Positions 4,991 to 60,124 of a stretch of DNA of 64,000 bases are shown in pieces (position 1 is the stretch's first letter; the number at the start of each line of letters is the position of its first letter). Source of the DNA: Takakia lepidozioides. Lineage: Eukaryota; Plantae; Bryophyta. The notes below the pieces were generated by a model. It had not been told where the DNA came from, did not search any database, and was given only the letters and a program-made list of their open reading frames with translations. The DNA lies in contig CM060731.1 in NCBI GenBank assembly GCA_030704615.1, positions 89,466,001 to 89,530,000 on the forward strand, written 5' to 3'. A program made the translations under genes and the position numbers.

Positions 4991-5269
4991 TAAAGCATAC
5001 TTTCTCCGTCTCTTAGCATTAGCAATTTGTCTTTCCATATTAAACTAGAGTTATACACGTAAGTTTTTTTTTAAATAAATAAATAATGATATATTTATGT
5101 GTATATTGGCATTTTTTATAGAATTAGTAATGACCATCCATGTATAGATAAAATTGTGATAAATAAATGTTTAGATAGAAATCATTGTATTGATATAAAA
5201 TGAGTGTTTTAAATTGAGGACTAGCTATTCGGAAGGAAAATCTCAGTGGTTAAAAATTCAAGGGGAGAA

Positions 5270-8200
5270 GAGAGTTTGAGTCTCCAGGATGAAAGAGGAA
5301 AAAATTAAAAAATAATAGTAATAAAGGTTTCAAACCCGCCCCGCTCTCCCTCTTCGGAGAGAGTTTGAGTCCTCAGATAAAAATTGTTTCAAAACCGTCA
5401 TTCTCCCCCACCGGACCGGGCTCGAATCCCCTAGTGATGCTGCAAGATATGGTGGGTACAAGGTGGATTGTTCTATTAATCTAACAAGCTTTGGAAGGAC
5501 TTTGAGCCTGCGCTCGTATATGGGCGGGCAAAGATTGGATACTTTCTACACCTCAGAGGACCACACTTTGGCTTCTTCTCAAGAGGACTTCGGATCGGAT
5601 CTGGCCAGACAAACACCAATTCTACTTATAGAACGGGGTTTGGGTGTCTGGGAGGAAAGAGGAAAAAAAAAAAGGAAAAAAAAAAGGTTTCAAACCCGCC
5701 CTGCTCTCCCTCTTTGGAGAGAGTTCGAGTCCCCAGATAAAAATTGTTTCAAAACGGCAATTCTCCCCCACTAGACTAGGCTTGACTCCCATATTGATGC
5801 TGCAAGATATGGTCGGTGCAAGGTCGATTGTTCTATTAATCTAACAAGCCTTGGAAGGACTTTGAGCCTGCGCTCGTATATCGGCGGGCAAAGATTGGAT
5901 ACTTTCTGCACCTCGGAGGACCGCACTTTGGCTTCTTCAAAAGAGAACTTCGGATCGGACCCGGCCAGACAAACACTAATTCTATTTATAAAAGGGGGTT
6001 TGAGTCTCCAGGAGGAGAGAGGAAAAATGAAAATGAAAAGATAATAAAGCTTTCAAACCCGCCCTGCTCTCCCTCTTCGGAGTGAGTTCGAGTCCCCAGA
6101 TAAAAATTGTTTCAAAACCACCATTCTCCCCCACCGGACTGGGCTCGAATCCCCTAGTGATGTTGCAAGATATATAAGAGAGTAAAAATAAAAAATAAAA
6201 GATAATAAAGGTTTCAAACCCACCCGGCTCTCCCACTTCGGAGACAGTTCGAGTCCCCAGATAAAAATTGTTTCAAAACCGCCATTCTCCCCCACTGGAC
6301 TGGGCTCGAATCCCCTAGTGATGCTGCAAGATATGGTTGGTGTAAGGTGGATTGTTCTATTAGTCTAACAAACATTGGAAGGACTTTGGGCCTACGCTCG
6401 TATATCGGCGGGCAAAGATTGGATAAGAGGAAAAATAAAAAGGAAAAGATAGTAAAGGTTTCAAACCCGCCCTGCTCTCCCTCTTCAGAGAGAGTTCGAG
6501 GCCCCAGATAAAAATTGTTTCAAAACCGCCATTCTCCCCCACCAGACTGGGCTCGAATCCCCTAGTGATGCTACAAGCTATGGTCGTTGCAAGGTGGATT
6601 GTTTTATTAATCTAACAAGCCTTGGAAGGACTTTGAGCCTACGCTCGTATATCGGTAGACAAAGATTGTGTCGCGCACCTCACTTCGGTAAGCTCCCCTT
6701 CAAGTCATAGTTACTCGCTTTGATGCGCGCGCCTAACTCCCAAACTGGCCGCCGGGCCAACTCGGAGCTTCGGCTGCTCACCGGGACATAACGGTCCCCC
6801 TTTACGCCTCCACAAGACCCTCTCTCAATTTGGGCCAAGTGAAAATTCCCTTTGGTCGATGGCAGTCCGGAACAGCTCCCCACACCTTGGTCGCTTTCCG
6901 GCTCGCACGCTTACTCACTAGCTTTTTGGTCACCAACGGGCTTGCACCGTTCTCGGGGTTACTACTCCCTATATATACTTCTGTGACTGTCCGCGGGGGT
7001 TTCACAAACAACCATGCCATTTTATGGCGAACCACCACGAAAACCCTCGATTCCCGGTGATGAGTCGCGATGAGTCTTGGCCCTCCCACCACGGCCCCAT
7101 TGGACCGTGATGAGTCCCAAGACTCCCCACGACTCCCACCACAAGGTCTCCGCCCCCATGGTGAGTCATATGCCACCCCCATTAAGTCCCACTAAGCTAC
7201 CATCACCCCTCATGGAACCACCCCTACCGCAACCCGGTGTGCGGGGCTCCACCTAGTGAGCGCCTCCGCCTCCTTGAGTGCCTTGGGCACTCAAGGGTGC
7301 TTCAGCCCCCGTATCTATTGTTGCCACTGCCCCCACCACAGGGGCAGCCTCCACAGGGCACAGGGCACAGCCTGTCACAGCCCATCACAGCCCATCACAG
7401 CCTGTCACAGCTTGCCATATCCTGACCCACTGCCCTCAAGGCGAAGGGCCGCGATAGATTGGATATTTTTTGCACCTCAGAGGACTGCACTTTGGCTTCT
7501 TTGAAAAAGGACTTCGGATCGGATTTGGCCAGACAAACACTAATTCTACTTATAGAAGGGGATTTGAGTGTCCGGGAGGAGAGAGGAAAAATAAAAAGCA
7601 AAAAATAAAATGTTTCAAACCCGCCGTGCTCTCCCTCTTCGGAGAGCGAGTCCCCAAATAAAAATTGTTTCAAAACCGCCATTCTCCCCCACGGACTGGG
7701 CTCGAATATGGGAATTTGGTTGAAGGGCATAATCATAGCCCAACTGTACTCCCGTGCAGCAGATGCTGCAAGATATGGTCGGTGCAAGGTGGATTGTTTT
7801 ATTAATCTAACAAACCTTGGAAGGATTTTGAGCCTGCGCTCATATATCGGCGGGCAAAGATTGGATACTTTTTGCACCTCAGAGGACCGCACTTTGGCTT
7901 CTTAGAAAGAGGACTTCGGATCGGACCTGGCCGGACCAACACTAATTCTACTTATAGAAGGGGGTTTAGGTGTCCTGGAGGAGAGAGGAAAAATAAAAGC
8001 AAAACATTTCAAACCCGTCCTGCTCCCCCTCTTCGGAGAGAGTTCGTGTCCCCAGATAAAAATTGTTCCAAAACCGCCATTCTCCCCCACCGGATTGGGC
8101 TCGAATCCCCTAGTGATGCTGCAAGATATGGGTGGTGCAAGGTGGATTGTTCTATTAATCTAACAAGCCTTGGAAGGACCTTGAGCCAGCGCTCGTATAT

Positions 8201-8420
8201 CGGCGGGCAAAGATTGGATACTTTCTGTACCTTAGAGGACCGCACTTGGCTTCTTCTAAAGAGGACTTCGGATCGGATCCGGACAGACAAACACTAATTC
8301 TACTTATAGAAGGGGGTTTGGGTATCCAGGAGGAAAGAGAAAAAATAAAATAAAATAAGATAATTAAGGTTTCAAACCGGCCCTGCTCTCCCTCTTCGGG
8401 GAGAGTTCGAGTGCCCAGAT
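5270..8420. repeat. Tandem array of a ~360-bp unit (about 8 full or partial copies), interrupted by a solo LTR
   Basis: The unit start ggtttcaaacccgccctgctctccctcttcggagagagttcgagtcccc recurs at about 5327, 5686, 6049, 6210, 6457, 7611, 8006 and 8368. Confidence 0.9.
6669..7456 (-). mobile_element. Solo LTR with 5-bp target-site duplication GATTG
   Basis: Homologous to 735-1458, with termini tgtcgc...gcgata. gattg occurs at 6664-6668 and 7457-7461. Removing the LTR restores the array unit (caaagattggata). Confidence 0.92.
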
Positions 8421-16944: not shown

Positions 16945-17300
16945 GCCTTCTTCTGCTGGGATTGCTGTGAATTATGGCATCAGTACCCCCTTTTGAGGTG
17001 GCTGTAAACTGTGAAAACAGACCCCCCCCCCCCTGCTTTGAACAAGTGCCATGACCTCCATATTGGGTCAAATCAGCTGGAAATTGGCTCTTTGGATGCA
17101 ATATGTCATGGTGTTGTTCCTTGCATGACCCTTCATCTGCTGGGATTGCTTTGAATTATGGTATCAGTCCCCCCTTGTAAGGTGGCTGTAAACTGTGAAA
17201 ACAGACCCCCCTTGCTTTGAACAAGTGCCATGACCTCCATATTGGGTCAAATCAGGTCGAAATTGGCTCTTCAGATGAAATGTCATGGTGCTGTTCCGTG
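16945..17300. repeat. Two-copy direct duplication of ~180 bp
   Basis: ctgctgggattgct...ggtggctgtaaactgtgaaaacagacccccc...tgtcatggtg occurs twice in tandem. Confidence 0.85.
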
Positions 17301-17307
17301 CCTGCCA

Positions 17308-17740
17308 GAGAAGATCCCCCGGATGGAAAAACGGCGCCGAATTTCCATCCGAGGGCGCACGGATGAAGTCGTCTCGGGGGGAGAGGCCGACACCTGGCCG
17401 ACAGAGAACATCCCCCGGATGGAAAAACGGCGCCGAATTCCCATCCGAGGCCGCACGGATGAAGTCGTCTCGGGGGGAGAGGCCGACACCTGGCCGACAG
17501 AGAACATCCCCCGGATGGAAAAATGGCGCCGAATTCCCATCCGAGGCCGCACGGATGAAGTCGTCTCGGGGGGAGAGGCCGACACCTGGCCGACAGAGAA
17601 CATCCCCCGGATGGAAAAACGGCGCCGAATTTCCATCCGAGGGCGCACGGATGAAGTTGTCTCGGGGGGAGAGGCCGACACCTGGCCGACAGAGAACATT
17701 CCCCGGATGAAAAAACGGCGCCGAATTTCCATCCACAGAC
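17308..17740. repeat. 96-bp tandem repeat (about 4.5 near-identical copies) with an internal hairpin
   Basis: The unit catcccccggatggaaaaacggcgccgaatttccatccgagggcgcacggatgaagtcgtctcggggggagaggccgacacctggccgacagagaa repeats at a 96-bp period. Confidence 0.95.
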
Positions 17741-18689
17741 GCCCGTATCGGCCCTTCATCAACAATTTTTAGTCGTTGCATCAAGTTTTTCGCAATTTTT
17801 TGGCTGGTTACACACTAAACTTGGAGTCTTTTGCCTGCAGGCCACTTTTGGCACGTTATTCCCACCATTCTCGTCCGCTAAAGACAAATTCGGTGCCGGT
17901 TTTCCATCGATGAGGTGGACCGAATTACCTGCAAGATGGAAATTCGGCGCCGGTTTTCCATCCGCCGCGCTCCGTCTTTCTTGCAGGATGGAAATCGGTG
18001 CCAGTTTTCCACCCGGCCGCGGTTCCGCTTACCTGCTAAATGGAAATTCGGCGCCGGTTTTCCATCCGGCGGCTCCTGGATGAGAACGGCTCGGGCGGAG
18101 GGAGGGCCACGTTGCGTCATACTTCATCCGCTGAATGGAAATTCGGCACCGTTTTTTCCATCCAGCGGGCGATTGATGAAGTCTCGGGGGGAGGGTGGGC
18201 CAGGTGGCGCCTGTGGCCGACCTCCATACCTACGACATTTAATGGCGCAGTTGCGCATTAAATGTCCTCCGCCGTCGGTTTTGAACCGGATGTTCCACAG
18301 GGATTCCGCGCTTGCTTCCCGGATACGCCTTCGACACCTGATGTGACGCTTGGATGAAGTTCCATTCGAGGCATGTACGCATGCATACTGCGGGAGATTT
18401 TTTCTTTTGCTGGGACTTATGCCACGTGAGAGAAGGGCGTGGCTCTCCTGAGAGAAACCCCACATCCAGACCGCGGCGGAAACTGAAGCGTCCAACCTCT
18501 CGCATGGCCAAACTGAAGCTGCAGCAGGAGATCCCATTGTCTTGCTCACAACCCGCGCCAACTAAAGCCAAGCACTCTCAGGCAAGCCCCTTCCTCTTTG
18601 GCTTTGTGTAACATGTGCGGTCTTCTTCGCTTTTTTTTGTTTGTTTTGGCATCTTCAGCCTGGCAGCCCTGGAAGTGCATGGTTGCATC

Positions 18690-18865
18690 GCAAAAGCACG
18701 AGTTGGTGAGAAGAATGATCAAGGTCAGAGGGGTTAGAAAGGAGTCAGGTCGTTGCTGCATTGAGATTTGCAACAAGGTGCACACCTTTGCTGTAGATGA
18801 CAGGTTGCATCCCGGAATTAAGGAAATCCATGCTGAGCTGAGAAGATTGTATGGGCAGATGAAGT
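18690..18865 (+). pseudogene. Isolated PPR E/E+ domain fragment
   Basis: VRRMIKVRGVRKESGRCCIEICNKVHTFAVDDRLHPGIKEIHAELRRLYGQMK follows the PG-box/E+ consensus of PLS-class PPR editing factors. Confidence 0.8.
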
Positions 18866-19277
18866 GCCTTCAAAACATTTCACCCTGTTTTCCCGTCTTA
18901 TCGAAATCGTGTTCATTTGTTCATCGTGTTTCATGTTCATTTCTGCAATACTGGTTGAGTGAACCTTAGATAGTTTGTAATGCGTGTGCAAAGCCGGCAG
19001 CTCTGGAGAAGGCTGCTTCTGCATGTGATTCTTAGGCATTGCTTGGGTTTGTTTTCATTGTTGTTCCATGCCACTCCATACTTGGTTTTGTTTTGTTTTC
19101 ATTGTTGTTCCACGATTGTTGCGATGGTGGTTGCGATGCTCGTTGCGATGGTGGTTTTCATTGCGATGTTGGTTCTCACGATTGTTGGGGATGACAGAGT
19201 GACGACGAGCCCGACACGCTGGTGGTATCATCGACAGCTCCAACTGCTCAGTCACTCCAAAAGCCGCTACTCATCGC

Positions 19278-20270
19278 ATGTTTGGATCGCCCAACTTGGG
19301 GCGGGAGGGCAAACTAAATCTTTCTCCTTTTGTTGGTGGACGGGAGGACCTGCAGCGAGAGTACGACAGAATAGGCATTTGGGAGGTTGGTGCAGGCGGC
19401 ATGGCAGGTGAAGGGCGTCGGATGAGGACAGTAGATCCGGCAATGGAGGAAGCTGATGCACATGTAGTAGGGCCCGCCCACGCAAAGAAGAAGAAGAAAG
19501 CCAAGCACATGCAATCCCCGGCGAGAGAGCCGTCACGGGCTGCGGAGGGGGGAGTGAGCAGGGCGCGCGAGGGTGTCAGTTCGCCTCAATCAAAGGTGGT
19601 CGTCCTGGAGGCCTCCCCTGCTGCTACCCCTAGTAAGAAACAGAAGGCCTGTGAGAGGGCAAAAGAGAGGGCAAAGGAACAGGCTAGACAGAAGGCTAGC
19701 GAGGAGGCAAGAGAAAAGGCCACTGAAGAGGCCAGGGGTGTCGAAATGACAGATGCCCATGTAAGCGAGGGACGCACAGAGACGGTGGATCCCTCCAAGA
19801 CACCAGAAATAGGCAGTAACACACCGGCTGCATCCTTACCGGTTACACCATCGCGGGTGGCAGCAGCCCCCGCAATTACACATACGGTGGAGAGTGGAGG
19901 AGGGGAAAGAACACCACAAAGAGCACGGATTGTGGGAGTTCGAGGTGAAGCCGGGGAGAGGGAAGTAGAGACGGGGAGAGTGCTTGAGGTGGTTCCGGCG
20001 GTGGTTGACCATGTTGAGGACGACGAGAGGGAGCTTTCTGACCAGGATGACATCCTCCCGGACATCCCTAGGCCCCAAACCCGGAGCATACAGGCTGGAT
20101 TTGGCGGTCCTGGTGGGCTACCGGAGAACCCCCCTGCAACAGACGTCATGTCGGAGGTGGATATGAAGTTGGCCGCTGCGAAGATGTTGGAGGCAACCCA
20201 CAACAACATTGGCAGGGTCCTGGGGGGCATGGTGTACCCGGCCTTGTCCAACCCCCGCACGATATACTGG
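19278..20270 (+). CDS. Low-complexity, charged hypothetical ORF, probably a TE accessory fragment; it abuts the convergent Ulp1-like ORF
   Basis: Long open frame with a KKKKK NLS-like stretch and an E/K/A-rich helix. No recognisable domain. Confidence 0.3.
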
Positions 20271-23200
20271 GCACACTGCATTCGTTGCCCAAGTGCAAAC
20301 TTGAAAGTAAACCAGTCCTTCGTGAAAGGTGTTCCTCTCTCTGGCTGTGCAGTCTTGGAGACATTTGCTCTAACTTTTACCCACTCATAAAACACTTGAA
20401 TGAATGACATGACGTAAAAGCCACACTCCCAGCTGAATGGTTGTTGGGGCACATCAGGCGCGTGGAACTGAAATGCTTGGACAATCTCATGCCACTCTGG
20501 TGAGTCCATCGAGTACCCTAAGCACTGCGCATGAAGCTTACGAATCCACCCTAGAACAAAGGGACATTTATGCAAGTCCCTGATAGAGTTCAGGTGAGTG
20601 TAACAGCCCTTGTGGAGGTCGATGATACAAACACTCCAGTGCCCCCTGCAATGGTATCAAACAACATGGCGTCATTGCACAATCATGATGGGCATACTCA
20701 GCAGACCGACCACTCAGCAGACCAGCACTCACAGACTCAATCTTCAAACCCAGTCCACTGCACAATACAGAGTCACTTAATCGCTCAGAGTCAGACGACA
20801 CTGCGAAACCAGACTATGACTCAGGAACAGTCTCAGCAGACTCAAAGAAGTTCTTACTCGTCCCCAATTGGCACCAAAATGAAATCGCACTCTTCAAGTC
20901 CTTGCCCAGTTGTTCAGTGCTGAGCAACCTTTCAACCTCCAGAAGGCTTTCATGTTGCCCACCACCCCCCAATGACTTCAACACCATCCACTCGACGTTG
21001 GAAGAACACCAATAGTGTTGATGAACGCAGCCTCAACCGACTTCTCATAGAATCGACACCACAAGCTCCAGGAGTCTATCTGTGCACTCCGACTCACCCT
21101 TCTGACCGCCTTTAGTCATCCGGCGACAATCCACATTCAAACCGTGGGTCCCCTTCAAAAACATCAGCATGGAATTATCTGCCTTCACGTGTAGAGCATG
21201 TGTTTTGCCAAACCGAGCACCCATCCTGCACAAGCAACCATCCTTCGGGAAAGCCTCATGTACTAAACAGACTGACGTCAACATGGTACCAACACTCTAC
21301 AGGCTGAACAATTCATCAGACTGACAAGACTAACCACAACAGACAATGATGAAACCAGCAGCAGACTGACCAGCGTGCAGACTGACCACAACAGAGCGCA
21401 AAGCACTTAACGACAAAGACAGACGAGGAGACTGAGCACGCACTCACCTGTGCTGCTCCAGGAAACGACCCACATCTTTGTCCATGTCCAAGGCCAGCTT
21501 GCGGTTCTTGTTCATAAGCGCCAGACTTTTTCTTCTCGCCGTCTTGGTGGGTACTCAGACCCTCCTCGACCTCCTTAGCATGGTCCACGACAGTCCGCTT
21601 CTGGCTTTGCCTCTCCCCTGGGAAGCAGGGACAGCTGTAGGCGGGCTGGATAGAGCAGACAAACGCAGCGCTGCCCGCCCTACTTCGCAACAGAGGCTAG
21701 TCAGCAGGTTTGTTTACACTTGCTGGACCTGTCTTGCAGCTTTGTGGTCGCATGCGTAGAACTGACCCGCGCATCGGGGGGCGTGCTCACCCCCACACCT
21801 TTCTTGGCTGTCGATCCCACGTTTGCAGCATGGGCGGAAGATGTTATGTCCTCAGAAGTGACAGTCTGCCGACAGGGACGAACATCCTGTGAGGATACCG
21901 AGCAAAATGTCAATTAGTAAATAATTTCACAATGTGCTAAAACATAAACACAGTGCTGAAAGAGGAAATGGCACAACCTGCCCAAGGGGTGAGGGAGCAG
22001 ACTCCATGTAATCCAGCGCTATACCAGACGGTGTCTGCGCCGCATGTGGTTCCTTGTCAGTGTGCCTGCCAGCATGTTCAGTCTGTTGTCTCAATGTGGG
22101 CATCTGCTCGGCCGCTGGTTTCTTCTTCTGTGAACTGTGCAGTCTGCTGGCAACTCTGGCAGTTCAGTCTCTTCCTCAATGTGGGCAATGTGCTCGGTGG
22201 CAGATGGTCGTCAGTCCTTCCCTCTATAAGTGTGCAGTGTGCTGGTCAGGCCGTGCAATCTGAACTGTGCAGTCAGAGCTGAGTTGCAGTCTGCCGCTCC
22301 GAGCTATCCTGGTCAGTCCTTCCCATCTATGACCTGTGCAGTCTGCTGGTTAGTCTGCGGTTTAGTCTCTTATATCAATGAAGACAGTATGCTGCCCCGC
22401 CCACGTTGCTCCGGCAGTCCTTCCATGTGTCCAATGTTCAGTGTGCTGGTCCAGTCTGGTGGACAGCCGGCTGGTGTTCGGATCTCCATGGACTTGGGAA
22501 ACATCAAGAACATGTATGGAAGACCCACCGGCAATTGCTTCCTTTGACTCTTCAGTAAGATCTATGATACGGTTTTGCGTTCCCAGATTGAGTTCGGTCA
22601 TCACGTAGGACTCATCTATGGCTTTCGCCACTGAGCGCACGAAAACCGGACTAACCTGGAAGGTCATAGAAGGCAGGCCACGGGGAGCTGGATAAGAATG
22701 CTTACCGGTGACCTGATGACGTCGTCAGTGAATGTGCCTGAGGGAAAAGTGGACTCGGTCAAAACACTCATACTGGCAGATCCAAAAACATGTTGTTGGG
22801 AACTCAGCAGAAATTCGTCCACAAGGTCCCGGTGAGGCCAGTGCATCCGAGTCTGTTGCACAATCCAGGGAACAGACTGGCTGTTAGTCTCCTGGATAGT
22901 CTGCTCGGCCATCTACTGAGTAGGTTCGTCAGTGTGCTGCACAGTCTGCTGGCTGGATTCGTCGATCTGCTGAGGGGCAATCTGCTGGCTCGATTTGTCG
23001 GTCTGTTGCACGGTCTGCTGTACAGTTTGCTGAGGGGCAGTCTGGTGGCCATGTTCCGCTGGTCTGCTGCACAGTCGGCTGAGGGGCAGTCTGTTGGCCG
23101 GTCTGTTCTCCGGTCTGCTGCAAAGTCTGCAAAGTTCGCTGCCCGTTCAGTACTGTTTTGCACATATTGAGTATGTGTGTGCGGGCAGTCTGCTGGGAGT

Positions 23201-42149: not shown

Positions 42150-43380
42150 TGTCAAGTTATTTCACCACTAGTGTGGAACTAGCTAGGAAATAGCTAGCTT
42201 TTACATATTGACATTTGGGATTGGCCCAAGTGTCAATCCAGGAATCAAGGCACATTTAGGCCCTGGAGTGGTTATCTTCACGGCAAGTGCGGGAGGCTCA
42301 TCTTTCTCGAGTTGAGCCTTACCGTGCCTAGCTATGGCGCCGTAGTGTGGATTCCCCATGGCGTGGGGTGCACTTGGCTTGACTTGTATTTGAGTGATGA
42401 GTTTATATATGCACGAGTTTATGCTTCAGTTTTGTGAGCTCGCATGAGCTTGTGCTTTTCTTCTTCTTTATCACTCAAGAAAGATCGGCTCATATCTGTT
42501 AGTGCCAGATACGAGTTAGTTGTAGCACTTGTGGTTTTTGCTTGAGAATGAGAGAAATCAGGTTTGGATGCGAGGAGCATCATCAAATTCGTGGTTGTTA
42601 AGAGCGGAGGCGATGTGGGTTACTAGATGGTAGACCTTGGCATTCGATCTTCAGCTTCAGAGATGAAAGCACCATGCTGCAAGTAATTCCAGAGCACCTT
42701 GATGGTTTCAGATTGTGTGAATGCATGAGCAAGCACGATTGGGAAGAGGATCAGTCAAAAGCAGGTTATAGTGGCTTTGGTGGCAAAGCTGAGAACTGGC
42801 CTTGGGAATGCGAGCTTTCATTGTGTGAAGGATTGCAAGACCAAGCTAAATGGCTGATTTGGCTTGGGGCAAATCAGTGCACTTTGTGGAGCATGTTGAG
42901 ATTGGGTTTCAATCTCGAGCTTCAGCATTGAAGGGCTCTTGCCATGGCAAGAGCAGGGCTCGAACATGAGCTAAGAGGTGCGGCAAGGCCATGGAATGTG
43001 CACTTAGGGTTTCAGAGCTTGGAAGAAGAGCTCTTGTACCACAAGAGAAGTGTCTTGTGGCTGGAAATGTAAACCTTAGGGTTTCAGGAACTTGACAAAG
43101 GTTGTGGAGCGCTTGGTCTTGTCTTAGAGAGCATCAAGGAGCCAAAGAGCCAAGATAGGAGGCTAATATTACCTCTTGTGTGAAGGGGATGCATGTGTGG
43201 AGCATGCGTTCAGCCAAGATAGGGGGCTGATATTACCTCTTGTGTGAAGAGGATGCATGTGTGGAGCATGCATTCAGCCCATTGAAGCTTCCATCTTCAA
43301 GCTTGGAGGGCAAGCAAGGAAGAGGGAAGGGTTGACTTCTCTTATGTGAGGGCAACGCATGTGTGGAGCATGTTTTCAGC
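42150..43380 (+). mobile_element. Second copy (5' end) of the methyltransferase-retroelement family, interrupted by the CACTA insertion at 43381
   Basis: Inverted homolog of 60024 to about 58857. It starts at the same TGTCAAGTTATT terminus and includes repeat B, the primer site and the leader. Confidence 0.92.
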
Positions 43381-44555
43381 CACTACAACAGATGAGCGTT
43401 TTTATGACTTCACATATGACTATTTTTTCAGTCTTATATGCGTTCATGACTACATCACTCTGTAGTGAAAAAACCCTGTCATAGCGACTAGTCTTTAGGA
43501 CTGCGTTTTGCAAGTCATATCCGTGACTGCTTGCGTGGCACCTGGAGTCCTATTGCCGAGAGGGTTGCAGTCACAACTATATGACTAATATATGACTACA
43601 TTGTCTGTTGAGCGCTGCCTACATGGAGAGGCTTCAGCGGGACACGTGTGCCACTGCGCAAGCGACACGTCATGCATTCGTCAGGGGATCATATGACTAT
43701 ATGTCTGCAAAGTGATGCCTACATGGAGAGGCGACGGATGGACACGTGCGCCACTGCGAATTTGACATGTCACGACTTCTTGCCATGATCATATGACTAC
43801 ATGTCTGCACAGTGATGCCTACATGGAGAGGCGCTAGCGGGACACGTGTGCTATGGCAGATTTCACACGTGGTGACTACATGACTCGCTCATATGACTAC
43901 AGGGATGTCTACATGGAGAGTTGTTAGCGGGACACCTGTTGCACTTGAGATGTGACATGTGGCACACAGACAAAATATATGACTAGCATATATGACTACG
44001 GATCTTTACACGTGGTGAAAATATGGATAAAGAATGTCGTGTCATATACTGCCACGTGTTCTGGTTGAGCAAGAGTGATGTCACGTGTCATCAAGATTGT
44101 TTTCCGAAATAGTTTATATTTTTAATGTTCATATTTTATTTTTAGTTTTCATTTAATATTTAAAAGAACAGTGAGATTGCATCCTTGGATTTTTTTTTTA
44201 ATGGTATTATTTTTAATATTATTATTTAAAATAAAAGTGAATTAAATGATTTAAAATCTTCATTACATGGTGAAATTCCAACATGAAAACAGAATGGATC
44301 CCTCCTACATACTATCAACCACAAGGAGAATGAAAATAGACAACTACAGGGCAATACAAGCCCTATAAATCACATTACAAAAATCCAAATGAGACCAATG
44401 TCCCAATGGACACCTCAAAAGCCACAAGGTCAAAAAATCCATGCCTCAAAAGGCCCAGCCAAAAACAAGCAAGCCCACACATGGGCTGAATTGTTGTAGC
44501 TAGTATATTCTAGTGCTATTAGAATCAAGAACTCTGTTAAACAGTGCAATACTGA

Positions 44556-48708: not shown

Positions 48709-49007
48709 GTAAGATCGTCACTTTCCCTTCAGCACTTTAGTTTGAATTTTGAATGCAACGATCCTCTTCTCCACATGTCGACATTTTCGTTGGGTGATTG
48801 TAGTCAAGAAGTCATAAGATACAGACGTGACTATGACTACGCCACTTCCGTTATCATTTTAATTAATGCACATGTCGTGTTTTCATTGGTCATGTGTAGT
48901 CATGTAGTCATATATGACTAAGTAAGTGACTGCAACTATGACTTCAATGGTTACAAATGTCGTGTTTTGATTGGGTGTATATTCATAAGATACATACGTA
49001 AATATGA

Positions 49008-49712
49008 TGTCGTGCGCATACATATCGCTACACAACTACATCGTTGTCCAAAACCACACAACACATGTGCACACCACACACTAGTATACCACTAGTCTAC
49101 CACTAGTCCAACCACTAGTCCAACCACTAGGCTACAACTAGTCAGTCACTAGGCTGCCACTACACTGCCCACTATGGCAGTCGCTAGTCCACACAATGAT
49201 AAAGAAGAAGAATACAAGCACAAGCTCATGCGAGCTCACAAAGCTGAAGCATAAACTCATGCATATATAACCTCATCACTCAAATACAAGTCAAGCCAAG
49301 TGCACCCCACGCCATGGGGAATCCACACTACGGCGCCATAGCTAGGCGCGGTGAGGCTCAACTCGAGAAAGATGAGCCTCCCGCGCTTGCCGTGAAGATA
49401 ACCACTCCAGGGCCTAAATCTGCCTTGACCCCTGGATTGACACTTGGGCCAATCCCAAATGTCAATATGTAAAAGCTAGCTATTTCCTAGCTAGTTTCAC
49501 ACTAGTGGTAAAATAACTTGATAGCTGTCGTGCGCATACATATCGCTACACAACTACATCGCTGTCCAAAACCACACAACACATGTGCACACCACACACT
49601 AGTATACCACTAGTCTACCACTAGTCCAGCCACTAGTCCAACCACTAGGCTACAACTAGTCAGTCACTAGGCTGCCACTACGCTGCCACTATGGCAGTCA
49701 CTAGTCCACACA
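49008..49712 (-). repeat. 3' terminal repeat block: A2 (49008-49195), B2 (49197-49523), A1 (49526-49712)
   Basis: A1 and A2 are ~188-bp near-identical direct repeats. B2 (327 bp) matches 59698-60024 with 3 C/T differences. Confidence 0.95.
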
Positions 49713-49724
49713 ATCGCCCCCCTA
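49713..49724 (-). promoter_or_regulatory. Polypurine-tract-like element preceding repeat A1
   Basis: The minus strand reads TAGGGGGGCGAT immediately before TGTGTGGACTAG. Confidence 0.65.
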
Positions 49725-49974
49725 GCTGGTGCTTAGGTCCCTCTAAGTCCAGGTAGCCACAAGATGTGATAGTGACCATAGCCTCACTAAGTCCTCCACC
49801 ACTATCCCTACTACACTCAAACTCGATAGATCAAGAGGCCGGGTGCAAGAGTTGCCCCATCGTTAGTCGCCGTCTTGCAACCTGTGAACTTGAGCTTGGG
49901 ATCTCATGTATTGACTCCTATGAGCTTGGCCTCCCATGTCTTGTTAGCTGCCTCCAGTCATGTCCACTGCCACT

Positions 49975-50125
49975 ATCCAAGCAGTGTGGACACAACCAAT
50001 CTCCGTCAGGCACCTTCTCAAGAGGTGGTGTCAAGCATCCCATATGCCAACCCCTTGAGCACCGATCACACACCAGCATGGTGGCTGCCCCTTTGGCAGA
50101 CCCACAGAGCATGCACCTCAAACCT
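49975..50125 (-). CDS. PHD finger at the integrase C-terminus
   Basis: CMLC...MLVCDRCSRGWHMGCLTPPLEKVPDGDWLCPHC is a C4HC3 pattern with the conserved Trp. Confidence 0.9.
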
Positions 50126-50199
50126 GCAGGTACCACTGCCAAGTTTGGGTCAACTCTGCCATCGACATTGGGAAGGTGACATGGCGCACAATTACGCAC

Positions 50200-51300
50200 A
50201 TGGTCTTTTCAAGTCATGCCATCCCGACCCTCTAAGATCAGGACCCCTGAGGGCAACACCTCTCGAACCCTCAGAATAACACGCCCTGCAGTAACATCCA
50301 GAGTCGTAGGAGCAGTCTGCTGCAAATAAACATAGTCACCAGGGCTAAACCTCCGAACCCCAGGACGATATCCTCCACCACGTATAGTGGCATACCTCAA
50401 CGTATCACGGTGCTTGTGCAATGGCAAGGTTCTCAAAAAGCCATGGGCATGACTTTCTTGAACAACTCTGCACGCTGATCACATGCACGTACCCACACAT
50501 CCGGATCATCAAGGTTAAGGACTTGAGCAGTGTCCTACGAATGGCTGCAGGCAAATCCGGCTCTCGGCCAAAGAGAGGAAATATGGTGAGAAGGAAGCAA
50601 GTGATGCTTGTTTGCTGAACGCCTGTAGCCCATGGCTAACCAAGGAACCTGAAGATCCCAATCTCCTAGGTGTCCCTTCTGCAAGCCATACTTGCGCAAA
50701 CCCCTCTTCACCGTCTGAACAACTCTCTCTGCTAAGCCATCGGCCTCAGGATGATCCCGAGAAGTGGTGCGGTGGTCTATCAAGGCTTTATCACACAAAG
50801 CCTGAAACTCCCCCAAGAACTCTCTCCCTTGGTCCGTGAGTACCTCAGCTGGAGCACCAAATCGGCTAAGCACACGATCCAAGAATGCATACGCAGCCCC
50901 CTCACTAGCCTTGTCAGGCAATGGAACCAACTCAATCCACTTGGAGAAGTGCTCCACCATCACCAACACATATCTGTGGTGGCGCATAGTCAGTGGCAAC
51001 GGTCCTGCGAAGTCAAGACTCCACCTGTAGCCCAATCCCATGATTGGTAAAGGATGCAACTGTGGTGTAGGGGGTTGAATGAAGCACGCACCCTGTCACA
51101 CACCATGCACCTAGCCACGAACTGTTGCACCTCTGTATGCATACCACGCCACCAATACTGCCCCTGCAGTAAACTGTGAGTGCGTCGCACTCCAAAATGC
51201 CCCAACTCCTCATGGGCATGCCGCACTAACCGTGCACGCTGTGTGGGTGAGGCACAATCCTCACCCGACCATCCTCCCACACTCGAAGTAGGTGTATCCC
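50200..51300 (-). pseudogene. DDE integrase (HHCC, rve core and C-terminal domain), frameshifted
   Basis: HAHEELGHFG...CMVC; WSLDFAGPLP; VLTDQGREF; ADGLAERVVQTVK. Confidence 0.93.
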
Positions 51301-51599
51301 CTCCCACTTGAACCTCTTGGCTCGTTGCAGGATCCGATCCCTCTCCTGGCAGTCACAATGGCTGCCGTGTCTCCCGTGCGGAGGTAGTCCAACACAGCCG
51401 AATCCTCATGTATATCTCTGGCACCACCTGCTCATCACTAGCCTCAGGGTCCTCAGACACTCCGTCTACAGTCATCCCTTTGTAGGTCCAATCTGACCTC
51501 CCGATGCCAAGATACACAAAAATGCAGATGCGTGCCATCCCGCACCATCTCCTCGTCCGTCTCACCATGCCACCGAGCTCCAGTGTCATCCTGCTGGCT

Positions 51600-52440
51600 C
51601 ATGCATGGATTGCGACTCAATCCATCCGCATCCCGATTGACCAAACCCGGTCGATGCACAACCTGAAAGTCATTGTCTCTAAAGCTCGAACTCGGCTTCA
51701 ACAATGGCCTCTGTCATCCTCCAGGATATATCATGTGACCCAGATACTCAATCTGGTTGTGGAAAAACTTGCACTTCCCCGGATGCGTGCGCTCTCAAGC
51801 GCTCCAATACCACCTGAAGGTGTCTCTCATGCTCCTCCATCGTAACACTAAAGATGATGATGTCATCTATGTAGCACCGAGCAAAGTCCACCCCTGCTAG
51901 AATCCTATCCATGACTCTCTGAAACTCTGCAGGAGCATTCTTAAGCCCAAATGGTAAGAACCGCCACTGATATAGGCAATCCTTGCCGTGCTCATTGATC
52001 CCCCAGAATGTCGTCTTCTGCTTGTCCGCCTCCTTGATTGGCAACTGGTGATATCCGGATCGTAAATCCAAAGTGCTAAAGCCTTAGCATGCCCGATGGC
52101 ATCAAAGATCTCCTCATGGCATACTTATCGGACTTGGTCTGACGATTTACAGGCCGGTAATCACCGCACATACGTCTCTCCGTCCAATTGCCATAGACAT
52201 CCTTCTTGGCTGGCATCACTGTGGCTGAAGCATACTCTCCACCAGAGAGCTCCACCAAACCTGCCTCCCAGAGATCTTGAGTCCTCATCTGAATCAAAGA
52301 CCTCTCCATGTCACTGTATCTATAGGGTCTCCGAAAGATTGGCGTGTCAGTGGCCAACTCAATACGGATCTCTTGACCCTTCAGTGCTCCCAAGTCCTTC
52401 AAACTGAAGGCAAAGCAATTCCTGTAAGCCCTCAGGAACC
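51600..52440 (-). pseudogene. Ty3/Gypsy reverse transcriptase followed by only the C-terminal remnant of RNase H
   Basis: RMCGDYRPVN, DLRSGYHQL, LPFGLKNAPAEFQRVMD and CYIDDIIIFS are present. Shortly after KFFHNQIEYLGH the sequence jumps to DFQVVHRPGLVNRDADGLSR. Confidence 0.93.
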
Positions 52441-52849
52441 GCCGTATACGTCGTCTCTCTCCTCCGTGACAATGGGTCCAATGTCAGGCTCCCAATTGTC
52501 CTCCGTAACTGCAACCTTAAGTCCAGTGGGCTTAGAGGTAGAGGACGCGTCCCGTGGTTGCTATGTTGCAACCTCTTGAGCAGTACTCCCTACCTGCTCA
52601 GTCAATGACAAGGCCTCATCCTGCCCCATCATCTCATCCTTGAGGACCTCCTCAACCGAGAAGAATCCCCCTCATCCATCACAGCCGCCTTGGCTGCCAA
52701 CTCCCTCTGAACCTCGAGCACCTCCCACGTGTGCCATGGATGCATGCACCCCGTGGTCCTCACATGCTCGCCCCACTCACTGCCTGTACCGTCTCGGTAG
52801 GCAGAGACCATTGAGGGAAGTGTACCGCACTCTGCGTTGCTCAGAGCCA

Positions 52850-53800
52850 AGCTGATAATCCAGGTCAAGCAATTGAGATCCATTGCTTGCCCCAACACTT
52901 GACGACGTGATGCCTCAGAAAGAGACGTGGTACCAGTGGTAAAACCCATTGCCCGCTCACGCTCGTCAGCATTAGGCTCCACTAACTGCTGCAACTGAGC
53001 ATCCCACAGGAGGCCAGGTCCACTATCCCGGAAAGCATGCGATCCTGGGAAGCTGAGCAGTGTAGGTAATGCTGCTCGTGGTTGACCCACCTTGTTGACC
53101 ACTGCCAAAGGCGAACGGTCATCGTGTCTCACACGCTGAGACTGCCTCCCTGTGTCCAGAATGTTATCCACTGTGAGATGTGCTGGCCGCTGCACCCCAT
53201 CAAATGCACGCTTGAGCAGTGCGGGTGGCATCAAGTTAGTCCACCATAGCCGTGGACGATGAGCCCGTGACCCCACTGTAGCTGCATCTAGCAACACTGC
53301 TGACCCAAGCCACGACCGGACTTGATGCACACTGGCCATCACCCTGGCCCGAGAATCGCCCATCAGTGGCACATTCTCCAAGATGTATGCTGGAGATACA
53401 GCTTGATGAAGCTGCAAGTGGCGCAAAACCCGCACCATCTCCCAAAACAGACCCGACCTCGAGTCTCGCAATCCATTGCCATGCCCGGCTGATGAATGCC
53501 CTTGGCAGGGCCAACCTGCCACTACCAGATCAATGGAGCCAACCCGCTCCAAATCCTGCGCCCCCAGCAACGAAATGTCTGCTGGCAAGGCCTGCTGATA
53601 TCCACGAATTGCAGACACCGACAACAACTCAGGGTACCGCTGCACCAACTGAGCAACATGGCGAAGTGAAACGCGTCGTGCAGTCTCATCCCTCTCCACA
53701 TACAGGTAACGCCGAACTCGTACACCTGCCTGTAACACAGCAGCCAATCCGGTGCTGATCCCCGCCAAACAAGTCCAGAAGACAAATGCCTTCATCCGGA
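52850..53800 (-). pseudogene. DNMT3-like DNA (cytosine-5) methyltransferase domain within pol (one frameshift at about 53760)
   Basis: Motif I LLDLFGG/ISTG, II YVERD, IV IDLVVAGWPCQGHS (PCQ at 53510-53502), VI YILENV, VIII AHRPRLWWTN, IX ERERAMGF and X RRQVLGQAM, in canonical order. Confidence 0.92.
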
Positions 53801-54196
53801 TACTGCCACACAATAGGTGTGGTGTCCAATGGAGACAATTGAGGTGGTCCTGGTGCAATCCCCACACTCTCCTCCTCTCCTGACGGTACAAAAGCCTCCA
53901 CCCAGGCTTGTTGCACCCGTCGATCAGCATCCCGCTGCAAATCCTTGCTCGTGCCCCACAATGGAGTCTGAGCAACCATGGTAGGCAACTCCGCCATACC
54001 ATACATGTCATCCTGCTCTCCCGGAGGTGGTACATCCTCTGAATGAGCGTTGCCCTCAAGCAACTCTCTAGGCCAACTCACTGCCGCTGTGAATGCTGCT
54101 AGTGTCGGCATCTTGCCTCGCTGGGCAACCGCAACTCCTCCTATGAACGTCACAGGGAGCTGCACACGCCGGCCCTCCCCTGACTGCCATGCAGGC

Positions 54197-54620
54197 CTAT
54201 AGGAAGCTGACTCCTCCCAAAAATCCAGGGTGAAGCCCATGGGGTACAACACTGCCCCACCAACCAGGACATCGTATGAGACCGCGTCTGTCACAATGGC
54301 CCTTGGCTCGCATCACTGAGCCATCTGTAGGGTGATCCGGCCGTAGTCTGATAGCCAACTCACGCCGTGTCATGCCCCGAGCCTGCTCCGATCCTCCCAG
54401 AGACGTCTGTATCTGGAAAGGACAAGGCTCCATATCCGCCTCCGTGAGGCCCAAGCCTGCAATAGCAGCTCTGCCCAGCATCAATGGCTGAGCTCCCGAG
54501 TCCAACAAGACCCAGTGGCCGGTACCTCTTGCTGCCGGTCCACTCAAACAGAAAATGCCATCCTGGTTGTCTAACATGACAACTCCAGGTGTCACCATGG
54601 CGCGCTCAATGGCTGGCCTA
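54197..54620 (-). pseudogene. Retropepsin-type aspartic protease
   Basis: VLLDSGAQPLMLG active site. YDVLVGGAVL occurs downstream in the adjacent frame. Confidence 0.85.
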
Positions 54621-55267
54621 GCTGGCAGCTCCATCAACCTGGCAGCTGCAGCTTGCCATGGCGCCGCCGTGGCAGTCTTGACCCTCAAATCCGAGGATCC
54701 CTCCGGCTACACACCTCCCACTATCTCCGCAGAATGAAGTAACCTCCCCACTCTCACAGAGTGTAGCTGCCAGCCTGAACACCTCAGCTGGTCTTACCCC
54801 CGGCGTCGCAATCATGGTAGCCGAGAACAATGGAGCCTGGCACACAGATGTGGCCGCTCCTAGCAGCACACTAGCTGCCGTAGCCTTGGCAACACTAGGT
54901 AGTGGTGCTACCCGTGTAGCTCTCCCCAATGGCATAGTAACCTCCGCCTCGGTAACAGTCGGGCGAGAACTAGGTGCCATGGATGGCGTCGACACTGTCT
55001 CCGCCAATGTGAATGACTGAGGAAGCCTAGCCTGACGGCTTGCCTCCCCACGCTGTGGATCCAACTCCACCTCTGCACCTCGTGGCTCAGGAACTCGTGC
55101 TGCTCCTCGAGTCACGGCTGCAGCAGACTCCACCTGCACTAGTGGTAGTGCTGCTCCACACATGAATCCCATGCCTCCCATATCTCCTCCCTCAGGAGCA
55201 GGAGGTGGACCATCCGGCCTTAGAGCCGGTACCACCTGAGCTGTAGCCATGGCAGCGAGCCTCTGCT

Positions 55268-56227
55268 CTAGCTGCTGAAGCCGGTTGGCCATGCCTTGGT
55301 CAACACCCTGACCTCCGCGTCCTTGGCCATGTTGAGCTTGCCCTTGGCCTGCACCTCGTGGCTGGCCACCTCGTCCTCTCTGGGCTGCTCCACCTCGCCC
55401 CCGGCCACCATTGTTCCCTTGGAACTGGCTGGGCGCAACTCATGCAAACCATAACACTGGGCCTCTCCATGCCCGTGCTTGCCACAATGCCCACACTGCA
55501 ACTGTGCAGGCTGTGCATGTGCCGGCCCTTTGCCTCCCTCTGGGCAATCCTTCTTGACATGGGGTCCTCCACATGTCCAGCACACCACATCCGCCCGTTG
55601 TTGGCCAGCAAATGAAGGGAGAGACCCCTGCATCTGAGGTCCTCTCTGCCCTTCCCTCTTCACCTGAGCCCCCTTGTTGCCTTGAGCACGTTGAGGTAGT
55701 GGTTGGCTAGGAGCACCACTACCCCGTGGTGTCTCCTTAGCAAATCCCACCATGACCACTCGTTCCTCCACCATGTTGAGCTCTATCCGCTCTGCCAGCA
55801 AAAACACATTTGCTAAGGTGGGTTGGGCCGCTTGTAGGAGAGTTGCATCCCGCACCCTTCTCCTCAGCTCCTTGTCCAATATCCCATACCAGAATTGGAC
55901 TGCCTGAGCTTCCGTAACCCCTTGGGTTACATTTATCAAGCGCCTCATGCGAGTGAAAGCCTCCCTCAAGCTCTCGGTCGGCTTCCGTTGGAACTCTTGC
56001 AAGCTCCGCAACTTCTCTGTCCTCACCCCTTGGTAGTTCCCTCTCAACTCTTCGAAGAACTCCACAACAGGGTTGAAGGCAGGCACGGCTAGTGCTGGTG
56101 CGGTAGTGGCTTGGGTGGACGTCGTAGCTACTGTACCACCAGTCCCACTGCTGCTTGCTGAAGCTGCCGGTGCAGCGGCAGGTGTAGCCACTGCCCTCGT
56201 GGCTCTAGTGCCCCTAGTGATGGACAT
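55268..56227 (-). CDS. Gag with two zinc knuckles
   Basis: Capsid-like LQEFQRKPTESLREAFTRMRRL...AVQFWYGILDKELRRRV, then CWTCGGPHVKKDC and CGHCGKHGHGEAQC. Confidence 0.88.
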   Translation of the reverse strand: MSITRGTRATRAVATPAAAPAASASSSGTGGTVATTSTQATTAPALAVPAFNPVVEFFEELRGNYQGVRTEKLRSLQEFQRKPTESLREAFTRMRRLINVTQGVTEAQAVQFWYGILDKELRRRVRDATLLQAAQPTLANVFLLAERIELNMVEERVVMVGFAKETPRGSGAPSQPLPQRAQGNKGAQVKREGQRGPQMQGSLPSFAGQQRADVVCWTCGGPHVKKDCPEGGKGPAHAQPAQLQCGHCGKHGHGEAQCYGLHELRPASSKGTMVAGGEVEQPREDEVASHEVQAKGKLNMAKDAEVRVLTKAWPTGFSS

Positions 56228-57354
56228 AGTCGGGTGACCAGTACATCCTCCACTCCTCGATCTCAACCTCATGCCCCCGCCTGAACTCATGGTAATCATC
56301 CATAGGCGGCCCCTCAAGGTGCTGAAACACCCCTTCCATGCCATGAAAGGCGTAAATAGTTGTGGATTGCGCATTTGCTGCAAATCACACCCAACTATCA
56401 AACTCTTGGATAAAATCATCCAACTCGATGGTGCCCACCGCCCCAGAGTACCTTCGTGGCCCCTTGGTAGCTCCATACATCTCCTCCATTGTGTCCCACA
56501 ACAATGGCAAAGAACAACTTGCACCGCCGGTATGAGTCCTCCTGATTCACAATCCGAATCAGAACCTTCCGTAGAAGACAGGAGGTGAAGGTGGCCTAAA
56601 CCGCACACCTCGTCTCGTGTACCCACTAGTATCGCTAGTGCTCGAACCGGCACTGTCCCCAGCAACTAGTGGCACCTCCGTGTTGACACTCAACCGGTCA
56701 TGAACATGTCCCTAACCCCTCTCCACAAGGTAACCGGGTAGAGAACCTGTTGCGGCTTATGGTTTGGAATACTAAGTTCCTAACATAGCCTACACCTGTA
56801 CCTGCATCCACCGCAAGCACTCCTATGGTTGGCTGGTCATCACCTCCAACCTCACCACAGGAGAAACAATGATGGTCTGGCTGGTCATCACCCAGCCTCA
56901 CCATCGACAGCATGCTCTAGGACTGGCCGGTGATCAAATCCGGACCAATCACCTATAAAAACAAGCGCCCACACAAAACTAATGGCGCACAGTCAAGCAT
57001 GCAGGTATGGAGGGGATCCAACACAAGAAATCAGAACGACAACTCCCCCACACCAAAAACAACTCCACGGTGTTGCTCCTGCAAGGACACCCCAGCCCAA
57101 ACCGGACTGACTCTTGCCTCCACCTACGGAAAGGTCTTGGCCTAATGAGAGGTGGAAAACTACGAGGAAGAGAAGCTAAAGCAATGCCTAACCCCAGCAT
57201 GCCCTCATCCCAACACCTTCCTCTCCTCTCTTCCCTCACTTGCATGACCATGGGAATATCATGAAGATACTCCTCAAACCGCCCTCCACGAGCTTCAAAA
57301 TTCGGCCTTCAGACCACATGCCAGTCCTTAGGCAGTCCACCAGTGCCTCCACGA

Positions 57355-58165
57355 GTCAGCACAGCACGTCACAGCCTCAAAGGCCTCGGGCACGGCCTGT
57401 CACAGCCCCTCACAGCCCCTCACAGCCGCAAAGGCCTCAGGCACGGCCTATCACAGCCCCTCACAGCCCATCACAGCCCCAAAGGCCATGGGCACAGCCT
57501 GTCACAGCCCGTCACAGCCCCACAGGCCTCAGGGCACAGCCTGTCACAGCCCCGCACAGCCCCACAGGGCACAGGGCATAGCCTGTCACAGCCCATCACA
57601 GCCCATCACAGCCTCAAAGGCCTCAGGCACGGCCTGTCACAGCCCCTCACAGCCCATCACAGCCCCAAAGGCCATGGGCACAGCCTGTCACAGCCCGTCA
57701 CAGCCCCACAGGCCTCAGGACACAGCCTGTCACAGCCCCCAAAAGGCCACTGGGCACAGCCTGTCACAGCCTGACACAGCCCGTCACAGCCCCACAGGGC
57801 ACAGGGCACAGCCTATCACAGCCCATCACAGCCTGTCACAGCTTGCCACAGCCTGTCACAGCCCGTCACAGCCGCAAAGGCCTCAGGCACGGCCTGTCAC
57901 AGCCCCTCACAGCCCATCACAGCCCCAAAGGCCATGGGCACAGCCTGTCACAGCCCGTCACAGCCCCACAGGCCTCAGGGCACAGCCTGTCACAGCCCCG
58001 CACAGCCCGTCACAGCCCCAAAGGCCACTGGGCACAGCCTGTCACAGCCTGACACAGCCCGTCACAGCCCCACAGGGCACAGGGCACAGCCTATCACAGC
58101 CCATCACAGCCTGTCACAGCTTGCCACAGCCCGTCACAGCTTGCCACAGCCTGTCACAGCCCCAC
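57355..58165. repeat. 10-bp-based minisatellite (cacagcc-tgt/cat/cgt) with higher-order repeats in the retroelement 5' leader
   Basis: About 800 bp of tcacagccNN units with recurring aaggcctcaggcacggcc and aaggccatgggcacagcc blocks. Confidence 0.95.
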
Positions 58166-59697
58166 ACATGGCCGCTCTGGCAGTTTAGCCATTTCTCCAA
58201 GGGGTTTAGCCACGCCAAGCTAGGGTTTGTGTCTCTTGGACTCTAGGCTTCTTTCCACCGAGCTATGGTGGCTGTGAGGAAATCAGCAAGGTATCCTTGC
58301 TCTTTCGGCTCCCACACACCACCATAGTAGCCCTAAGCCATGAGGTGGTTGCCACAAACCAAGCCTTCTTTCTCACTTAGCCTCCCCAAACACGCCACTA
58401 AACTCAATGGCAAACAACCAAGCCCTGCTGGTTCCCAGCCCTTGTGAGCACTCATTCAAGCACTCTCATTGGCCATAACATCTGTCTTAGAGCCTATTCC
58501 AGCCCTCTACACCTGTTGCTTCAAGAGTTGCGCTCCCTTCAAGCTTGAAGTTGAAACCCCAACTCACATAGGCCCTACAAGTGCTTTTCTTTCACTCCAA
58601 GTGGAAACCAGCCCTAGACCTTCCGTTCTAGCTCTCTAAGGCTTGAAAACAAGAGCCTCAATGGGCTGAAGGCATGCTCCACACATGCCCCACTCTCACC
58701 ATAAGAGAATCAGCTCATTTGCTTCATTTCTTGCATCCACAAACCTGAAAATACAAGCTTCAGCAGGCTGAAAGCATGCTCTACATGCCCTACAGGGAAA
58801 CCAGCCCCTTCCTTCCTTCCTTGCACTCCACACCTAAAAGTGCAAGCCTTCACCAGGCTGACAGCATGCTCCACACATACATTGCCCTCACATAAGGGAA
58901 GTCAGCCCTTCCCTCTTCCTTGCTTGCCCTCCAAGCTTGAAGATGGAAGCTTCAATGAGCTGAATACATGCTCCACACATGCAACCTCTTCACACAAGAG
59001 ATATCAGCCCCCTATCTTGGCTCCTTGGCTCCTTGATGCTCTCTATGACAAAACTAAGCACTCCATAGCCTTTGTCAAGCTCCTGAAACCCTAAGGCTTA
59101 TATTTCCAGCCACAAGACACTTCTCTTGTGGTGCAAGAACTCTTCTTCCAAGCTCTGAAACCCTAGGTGCACATTCCATGGCCTTGCCGCACCTCTTAGC
59201 TCCTGTTCCAGCCCTGCTCTTGCCATGACAAGAGCCCTCTCAATGCTGAAGCTCGAGATTGAAACCCAATCTCACCATACTCCACAAAGTGCACTGATTT
59301 GCCCCAAGCAAAATCAGCCCTTTCGCTTGGTCTTGCAATCCTTCACACAATGAAAGCTCGCATTCCCAAGTCCAGTTCTCAGCTTTGCCACCAAAGCCAC
59401 TATAACCTGCTCTTGACTAGTCCTCTTCCCAATCGTGCTTGCTCATGCATGTACACAATCTGAAACCATCAAGGTGCTCTGAAATTACCTGCAGCATGGT
59501 GCTTTCATCTCTGAAGCTGAAGATCGAATGCCAAGGTCTACCACCTCGTAACCCACATCGCCTCCGCTTCTAACAACCAAGAGCTCCATGGTGCTCCTTG
59601 CATAACAACTTGGTTTCTCTCAATCTCAAGCAAAAACCACAAGTGCTACAACTAACTCGTATCTAGCACTCATAGATACGAGCTGATCTTTCTCGAG

Positions 59698-60024
59698 TGA
59701 TAAAGAAGAAGAATACAAGCACAAGCTCATGCGAGCTCACAAAGCTGAAGCATAAACTCATGCATATATAACCTCATCACTCAAATACAAGTCAAGCCAA
59801 GTGCACCCCACGCCATGGGGAATCCACACTACGGCGCCATAGCTAGGCGTGGTGAGGCTCAACTTGAGAAAGATGAGCCTCCCGCGCTTGCCGTGAAGAT
59901 AACCACTCCAGGGCCTAAATCTGCCTTGACCCCTGGATTGACACTTGGGCCAATCCCAAATGTCAATATGTAAAAGCTAGCTATTTCCTAGCTAGTTTCA
60001 CACTAGTGGTAAAATAACTTGACA
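59698..60024 (-). repeat. 5' terminal repeat B1
   Basis: 327-bp direct repeat of 49197-49523. On the minus strand it reads TGTCAAG...TTTATCA. Confidence 0.95.
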
Positions 60025-60124
60025 ATGACTGCATCACTGCAACGTCACCGTGCCTCCTATGTCATAATATGAACAAGTGTCACATCGTTGTTGGTCCACT
60101 CACAAGATGACTATTGGGATGCAG

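Follow-up and report, generated by a model that had tools for sequence, protein, structure and literature searches.

Organization of the Element and Its Surroundings

The window, by which we mean the whole 64-kb stretch of DNA that was analyzed, carries on its minus strand a Gypsy-DNMT3 element of 11,017 bp from end to end (49008..60024), which has TG..CA termini and is flanked by a 4-bp target duplication, ATGA, whose two copies (49004-49007 and 60025-60028) were assigned from the junction sequences. All of its domains are encoded on that strand, in the order gag, protease (PR), a DNMT3-like C5 cytosine methyltransferase (DNMT), reverse transcriptase (RT), RNase H (RH), integrase (IN), and PHD finger. 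The gag region (55440..56489) is frameshifted, contains two CCHC knuckles (55582-55544 and 55495-55454), matches Retrotrans_gag at E=0.004, which is below the Pfam cut-off, and is 45-65% identical to P0003 of Marchantia. The aspartic protease (54200..54640), which gives no Pfam match by itself, has the DSG motif LLDSGA (54508-54491) and a frameshift near 54300. The methyltransferase (52845..53800) is separated by the stop TAG-CAA-CCA (52555..52563), which has a type I (CAR-YYA) context, from the RT (51673..52483; YIDD at 51873-51862; RVT_1 E=1.4e-21); there follow an integrase with an H2C2 zinc finger and a DDE core (50436..51250; Integrase_H2C2 E=1.7e-17, rve E=1.3e-14) and a C-terminal PHD finger (49960..50115; PF00628 E=1e-11). 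The RNase H, present in relatives, is mostly deleted at 51673-51716, where a contig of sequencing run X12, which may be an RNA run and served as a source of other copies, has 561 letters. With its PR-RT-RNase H-integrase order, DDE integrase, TG..CA ends, and short duplication, this is a Ty3/Gypsy element; with frameshifts in gag, protease, DNMT motif I, linker, RT, and integrase, and with most of the RNase H gone, the copy in the window is a dead one.

Two identical full-length LTRs are absent from the element, and its repeats are instead split in an A-coding-B-A-B layout. The 5′ repeat A1 (59698..60024, minus strand) is 99.4% identical to A2 over 325 nt, with two internal differences in these 325 positions and one more at the end, whereas the 3′ repeats (49008..49714, minus strand) run from B1 (49714-49526) through the letters GC to A2 (49523-49197) and B2 (49197-49008), B1 and B2 differing at four positions and one gap over about 190. 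Such repeats, 97-99% identical within a copy whose coding region has many breaks, indicate that the element probably moved recently while already defective, which suggests mobilization in trans. Self-alignment recovers split repeats in the window element and in the metagenome loci L056 and L068, and partially in L034 and L012; the 4-bp duplication is found in the window and in two of the three relatives with both ends (L034 and L068), the left end of L056 being damaged. An empty site joining 49002/49003 to 60025 occurs in sequencing runs X1, X5, and X6, with four letters assignable to either side in X5 and X6, but it is no proof of an insertion polymorphism, since other copies of the multicopy CACTA element into which the insertion fell may be its source.

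Inspection by eye found no tRNA-type primer site 3′ of A1; a strong hairpin (59630-59675), not obviously common to L034, L056, and L068, lies just 3′ of A1 at the place expected for one. The near-palindromic B|A junction (49516-49533) is centered on GACA-GC-TGTC, and a palindrome or near-palindrome is likewise seen in L012, L034, L035, L038, L056, and L068; it contains both integrase end sequences with a 2-nt spacer in common, and may serve as a template or cleavage site for both termini. At four loci (L018, L019, L023, and L063) the 3′ end stops directly after B1, without the trailing A-B, and these A-coding-B ends could come from recombination between B1 and B2 or from a second form of integration. 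A polypurine-tract-like run (49715..49724, minus strand), kept in relatives, adjoins B1, and a block of ~35 nt in the 3′ UTR (about 49825-49870), where a stem-loop is possible, is kept in L012, L018, and L035, across divergent subfamilies. The long 5′ leader holds tandem repeats of a 10-nt unit (57340..58170).

A second copy of the same family (92-96% identity) is represented by its 5′ end (42150..43380, plus strand), cut off by a CACTA transposon that starts at 43381 and is in turn broken by the first copy, giving three levels of nesting over 42150-64000. The CACTA transposase has only "Streptophyta" matches in the ESM Atlas, and a PPR E+ motif fragment (18517-18966) supports a land-plant host. 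Elsewhere in the window there are a Helitron-type DUF6570 ORF (3212-4726), a Ulp1 peptidase fragment (19589-20656), and repeat arrays with units of 360 nt (5266-8420), 96 nt (17299-17778), and 100 nt (43602-43901, CACTA subterminal).

The Methyltransferase Domain

The conserved motifs of the domain, all on the minus strand, are LDLFGG of motif I (53778-53761) with its continuation GISTG (53762-53748), GWPCQG (53516-53499), ILENVP (53384-53367), RAHRPRLWWTNL (53267-53232), ERERAMGF (52964-52941), and VLGQAMD (52898-52878). The two parts of motif I lie in different frames, owing to a 1-bp frameshift near 53760 that is absent from other copies. The domain is intronless and its motifs follow the canonical order I-IV-VI-VIII-IX-X; a DRM methyltransferase, which would require a permuted order, was rejected as its identity. 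The first-pass annotation had called the enzyme DNMT3-like, with an order not permuted as in DRM, and had proposed a Pfam DNA_methylase search, which returns E=6.5e-13 (49 bits vs a cut-off of 22). Its call agrees with the comparisons to solved structures, in which the single window sequence matches DNMT3A at 9e-8, M.HhaI at 5e-4, and DRM-type enzymes at 0.01 or worse, and a 44-sequence profile matches DNMT3A at 2e-23, DNMT3B at 7e-21, DRM-type enzymes at 2e-12, and M.HhaI at 9e-7. An AlphaFold model (pLDDT 90) likewise has DNMT3A/3B as its top Foldseek matches, with a TM score of about 0.7, and by sequence and predicted fold together we classify the domain as DNMT3-like. The ESM Atlas gave generic, mostly phage methylase clusters at 0.96 and was uninformative on origin. 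Among viral contigs no more than 13 partial matches turned up, at 28-53% identity, so that no close viral donor is seen.

The Family, Its Relatives, and Selection

Protein searches retrieved 252 relatives of similar length and 71 longer ones. The named kin come from Calypogeia, Marchantia, Riccia, and Sphagnum, the best of them at 69-75% identity, and from Closterium, Chromochloris, and Monoraphidium at 35-41%, although the Monoraphidium match, which is short, reaches 52%. Seed plants do not occur among the named matches, most rows being without a name. A profile search with the DNMT yielded 588 clusters (50% identity) at E<=1e-30, and among the best 150 of these, 104 join the DNMT to protease, RT, RNase H, or integrase sequence, the other 46 being DNMT alone. 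In a chlorophyte type, to which 73 of these 150 belong, the DNMT follows RNase H and precedes integrase, and the stop is absent (members of this type include P0047, P0063 from Chromochloris, P0070 from Monoraphidium, P0313 from Scenedesmus, L066, and L070-L072); the DNMT precedes the RT in one ORF in four, and nine end after PR-DNMT. At the nucleotide level, 80 metagenome loci have the same domain order as the window, and among the sequencing runs of the host, X5 has 212 contigs over a 1.36-kb DNMT-linker stretch, in identity classes from <90 to >99%.

The DNMT and RT trees, quickly built and unrooted since no host DNMT3 outgroup was included, are broadly congruent, and in the quick DNMT tree, supported by SH-aLRT only, the window sequence is placed beside the liverworts and Sphagnum that carry names rather than among them. 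Between lineages, dN/dS is 0.05-0.17 for the DNMT and 0.04-0.08 for the RT where dS is computable, and the DNMT is a fixed part of the family under purifying selection; young peat-moss-like pairs have higher values (DNMT 0.41-0.53, RT 0.28-0.37), as expected of dead copies. The annotation had named three outcomes that would count against its proposal, namely a domain inserted only once, a lack of purifying selection, and non-plant contamination, and the data speak otherwise on each. A single capture of a host gene by the window copy, or contamination of the contig, is ruled out in our judgment: we found nothing in its support, and against it stand the 252 + 71 protein relatives, the 80 loci of the same order, the congruence of the two trees, and, within the window, the second family copy and the PPR E+ fragment, the nearest named kin being liverworts and Sphagnum.

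Another reading is that of a catalytically silent domain, retained for DNA or RNA binding or for structure. To this reading belong the report that KnitGypsy-Dnmt3, the related element of Klebsormidium nitens, had no activity in yeast, a result that its authors call inconclusive (PMC5890265), and the weak retention of the motif VIII arginines among decayed metagenome copies, where the counts of 49 of 74 and 53 of 73 loci come close to the 63% background. Against it, the PC and ENV motifs are each present in 133 of the 150 divergent representatives (the best 150 of the 588 clusters) and the ENV glutamate in 71 of 77 loci; the count of 80 of 80 for PC among the loci is biased, as these were fetched using that motif. 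We accordingly hold a silent domain to be very improbable, and intact copies are quite likely to be catalytically active. The CpG observed/expected ratio of the element (0.52) is only slightly lower than that of its surroundings (0.59-0.63), and we therefore do not take it as a sign of self-methylation.

A Conserved Stop between Methyltransferase and Reverse Transcriptase

The first-pass annotation had placed the methyltransferase inside pol, between the DSG protease and the YIDD RT. The motifs, the position, and the intronless state all stand, but "inside pol" fails for the lineage of the window because an in-frame stop separates the DNMT from the RT: the domain is the last in a Gag-PR-DNMT ORF and lies outside the ORF of the RT. 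Since linker indels end the DNMT frame of the window copy early, at 52631, its frame relationship rests on uninterrupted relatives. At L035 there is one frame of ~2,400 codons (1369 + 1047) whose only internal stop is TAG-CAG-TTA, with no second stop between 973 and 8227, and at 18 of 44 loci a single stop, TAA in six of them, interrupts an otherwise open frame from the DNMT end into the RT.

The linker set (n=46) comprises the window and those 45 of 80 metagenome loci in which the RT lies no more than 1.5 kb from where the DNMT ends. TAR-CAR-YY stands at the matching place in 44 of these 46, and the remaining two (TAG-TAG-CCA and TAA-TAA-CCC) retain the stop and are one C-to-T change off the motif; by comparison, just 4-7% of shuffled versions of a 330-nt linker contained the motif at any position. 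In five anchor loci, five consecutive columns within the stop and the codon after it are invariant between variable flanks. Since 39 of the 46 linkers form one peat-moss-like group, and an insertion is all that sets L010 apart from it, there are about five independent cases: beside this group there are four further types (the window; L001; L032, L035, and L038; and L040), and the five types, which do not join at 65% identity, all retain the stop. The strict form UAG-CAR-YYA occurs in the window, L001, L032, L035, and L038, and most peat-moss-like loci have CAA-CCC, which is not strictly YYA, followed by ATG. The clade with the stop comprises 33 rows in the DNMT tree (SH-aLRT 98) and 14 in the RT tree (88), both unrooted, and outside it there are relatives with PR-DNMT-RT in a single ORF (P0234, P0235, and P0318) as well as the elements of the chlorophyte type.

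Type I readthrough is signaled by UAG-CAR-YYA (PMC11166343), and in the type I context of TMV, extension is about 10% and UAA is decoded as well (PMC2754532). Predicted RNA structure 3′ of the stop is inconsistent: across five loci z ranges between 0 and -3.2, with no conserved stimulator among them. Protein records bear on the same point: among the best 36 long matches, 32 span the DNMT end, and 27 of the 32 terminate 61-147 residues farther on without an RT, one ends at 20 residues, and four Marchantia gene models continue. Proteins that begin with the RT start 0-24 residues ahead of it. Against the proposed arrangement, the cluster P0202 continues through the stop site with Tyr.

With the same anatomy, RT and integrase could be produced without readthrough, either by translation that restarts at an AUG beyond the stop or from an RNA that is spliced or shortened. 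The ATG directly after the hexamer in the peat-moss-like group would suit reinitiation, but it is missing there in the window, L001, L032, L035, L038, and L040, and reinitiation would need neither the frame nor the CAR context, both of which are retained; the four Marchantia models that bridge the stop site count in favor of these routes, but they are automatic predictions on decayed copies. We consider these routes distinctly unlikely, and the stop is, judging from its context and conservation, likely read through.

Proposed Mechanism and Its Implications

The overall reading that we favor, with somewhat more confidence than doubt, is that of a Gag-PR-DNMT first frame closed by a leaky UAG-CAR-YY(A) stop, which would set the methyltransferase at capsid level, with the enzyme likely packaged and likely methylating the cDNA of its own element. 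Because the stop context matches the TMV-type signal, Gag-PR-DNMT, terminating at the stop, would likely be the abundant product, and occasional readthrough would likely add RT, RNase H, integrase, and PHD finger to give a rare product, Gag-PR-DNMT-RT-RH-IN-PHD. In retroelements generally, a protein fused to Gag enters the particle and is set free by the protease, and it is likely that the DNMT is freed by the protease of the element and packaged in this manner. The PHD finger would steer insertion. As for the substrate, the cDNA is the most likely one, though at about even odds, and in that case new copies would arrive already marked. Packaging and cDNA methylation have also been hypothesized for KnitGypsy-Dnmt3 (PMC5890265).

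The enzyme might be active and yet act on host chromatin, on the insertion site, or to damp its own element, rather than on cDNA in the particle. Enzyme made at capsid level would far exceed what a single cDNA calls for, the PHD finger indicates contact with chromatin, and self-limitation and insertion-site effects are among the options named for the Klebsormidium element (PMC5890265). On the other side, in every architecture seen, the DNMT lies within the particle polyprotein, whether before the RT or between RNase H and integrase, which fits action on the cDNA, and we judge these other targets unlikely, if not strongly so. Returning to cDNA methylation, a broader picture can be drawn tentatively, and we would sooner doubt than assert it as a whole: a very large green-lineage radiation with DNMT3 at two polyprotein positions, whose land-plant branch evolved a leaky stop and with it a methyltransferase at capsid level, many copies per particle, and pre-methylated cDNA, the split repeats and palindromic B|A junction implying replication unlike that of canonical LTR elements.

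Since 2018 there has been the question of why a retrotransposon should retain an enzyme of silencing. The conserved stop bears on dose, in that selection placed the DNMT on the abundant side of the probable recoding site, which speaks for particles with many enzyme copies each. Close relatives are present in Marchantia polymorpha, a genetic model in which readthrough and cDNA methylation can be tested. The stop also accounts for the annotation of these loci as free-standing "DNA methyltransferase" proteins, which can inflate counts of host DNMTs; if the proposed mechanism is true, bryophytes such as Marchantia would have in reactivated copies an unrecognized source of de novo cytosine methylation.

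Comparison with Known Systems

Our literature search found neither land-plant Gypsy-DNMT3 elements nor a stop between DNMT and RT; subscription journals, Repbase, the figures of PMC5890265, and preprint supplements, which could include land-plant members, lay beyond its scope. In the portions consulted, later papers cite KnitGypsy-Dnmt3 as a streptophyte case with land plants unnamed, a 2026 preprint labels a branch of its DNMT tree "streptophytes (Gypsy-DNMT3)" (bioRxiv 10.64898/2026.05.21.726589), and the Marchantia methylome paper describes five host methyltransferases with those of retroelements unmentioned.

Other retroelements also bear cytosine methyltransferases, namely SymbioDIRS-Dnmt3, which methylates CG in yeast (PMC5890265), and the EpiLTRs of Euglena and Cymbomonas (bioRxiv 10.64898/2026.05.21.726589). 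These are, however, tyrosine-recombinase elements or carry DNMT4-sister domains with DAM and chromodomain, and they are described as separate captures (PMC5890265; bioRxiv 10.64898/2026.05.21.726589). The Chlamydomonas elements Gypsy-7a_cRei and REM1 are green-lineage Gypsy elements with a PHD finger, as here, a likeness that rests on domain descriptions, and the domains listed for them include no methyltransferase (PMC9940879). Type I readthrough in TMV offers the same arrangement of an in-frame CAR-YYA stop, an abundant N-terminal product, and a rare polymerase extension (PMC11166343, PMC2754532); in the retroelement cases consulted, the leaky stop lies between gag and pol (PMC3441728), whereas here the protease and the DNMT are on the Gag side.

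The closest counterpart is KnitGypsy-Dnmt3 (de Mendoza et al. 2018, PMC5890265), from which a methyltransferase within a Gypsy element with the same repeat layout is already known. Like the family in the window, it combines Gypsy domains with a Dnmt3-like domain that is free of introns and not permuted, and the two have in common the A-coding-B-A-B, DIRS-like repeats and purifying selection on the DNMT. It differs in that a single ORF is described for DNMT, RT, and RNase H together, where the window clade has a conserved stop between DNMT and RT, and, in the text consulted, it is reported only from K. nitens (PMC5890265), whereas the window element comes from a land plant; no match named Klebsormidium occurs among our protein matches. 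To that precedent the present analysis adds the land-plant range, the two positions of the domain, and, above all, the conserved and probably leaky stop.
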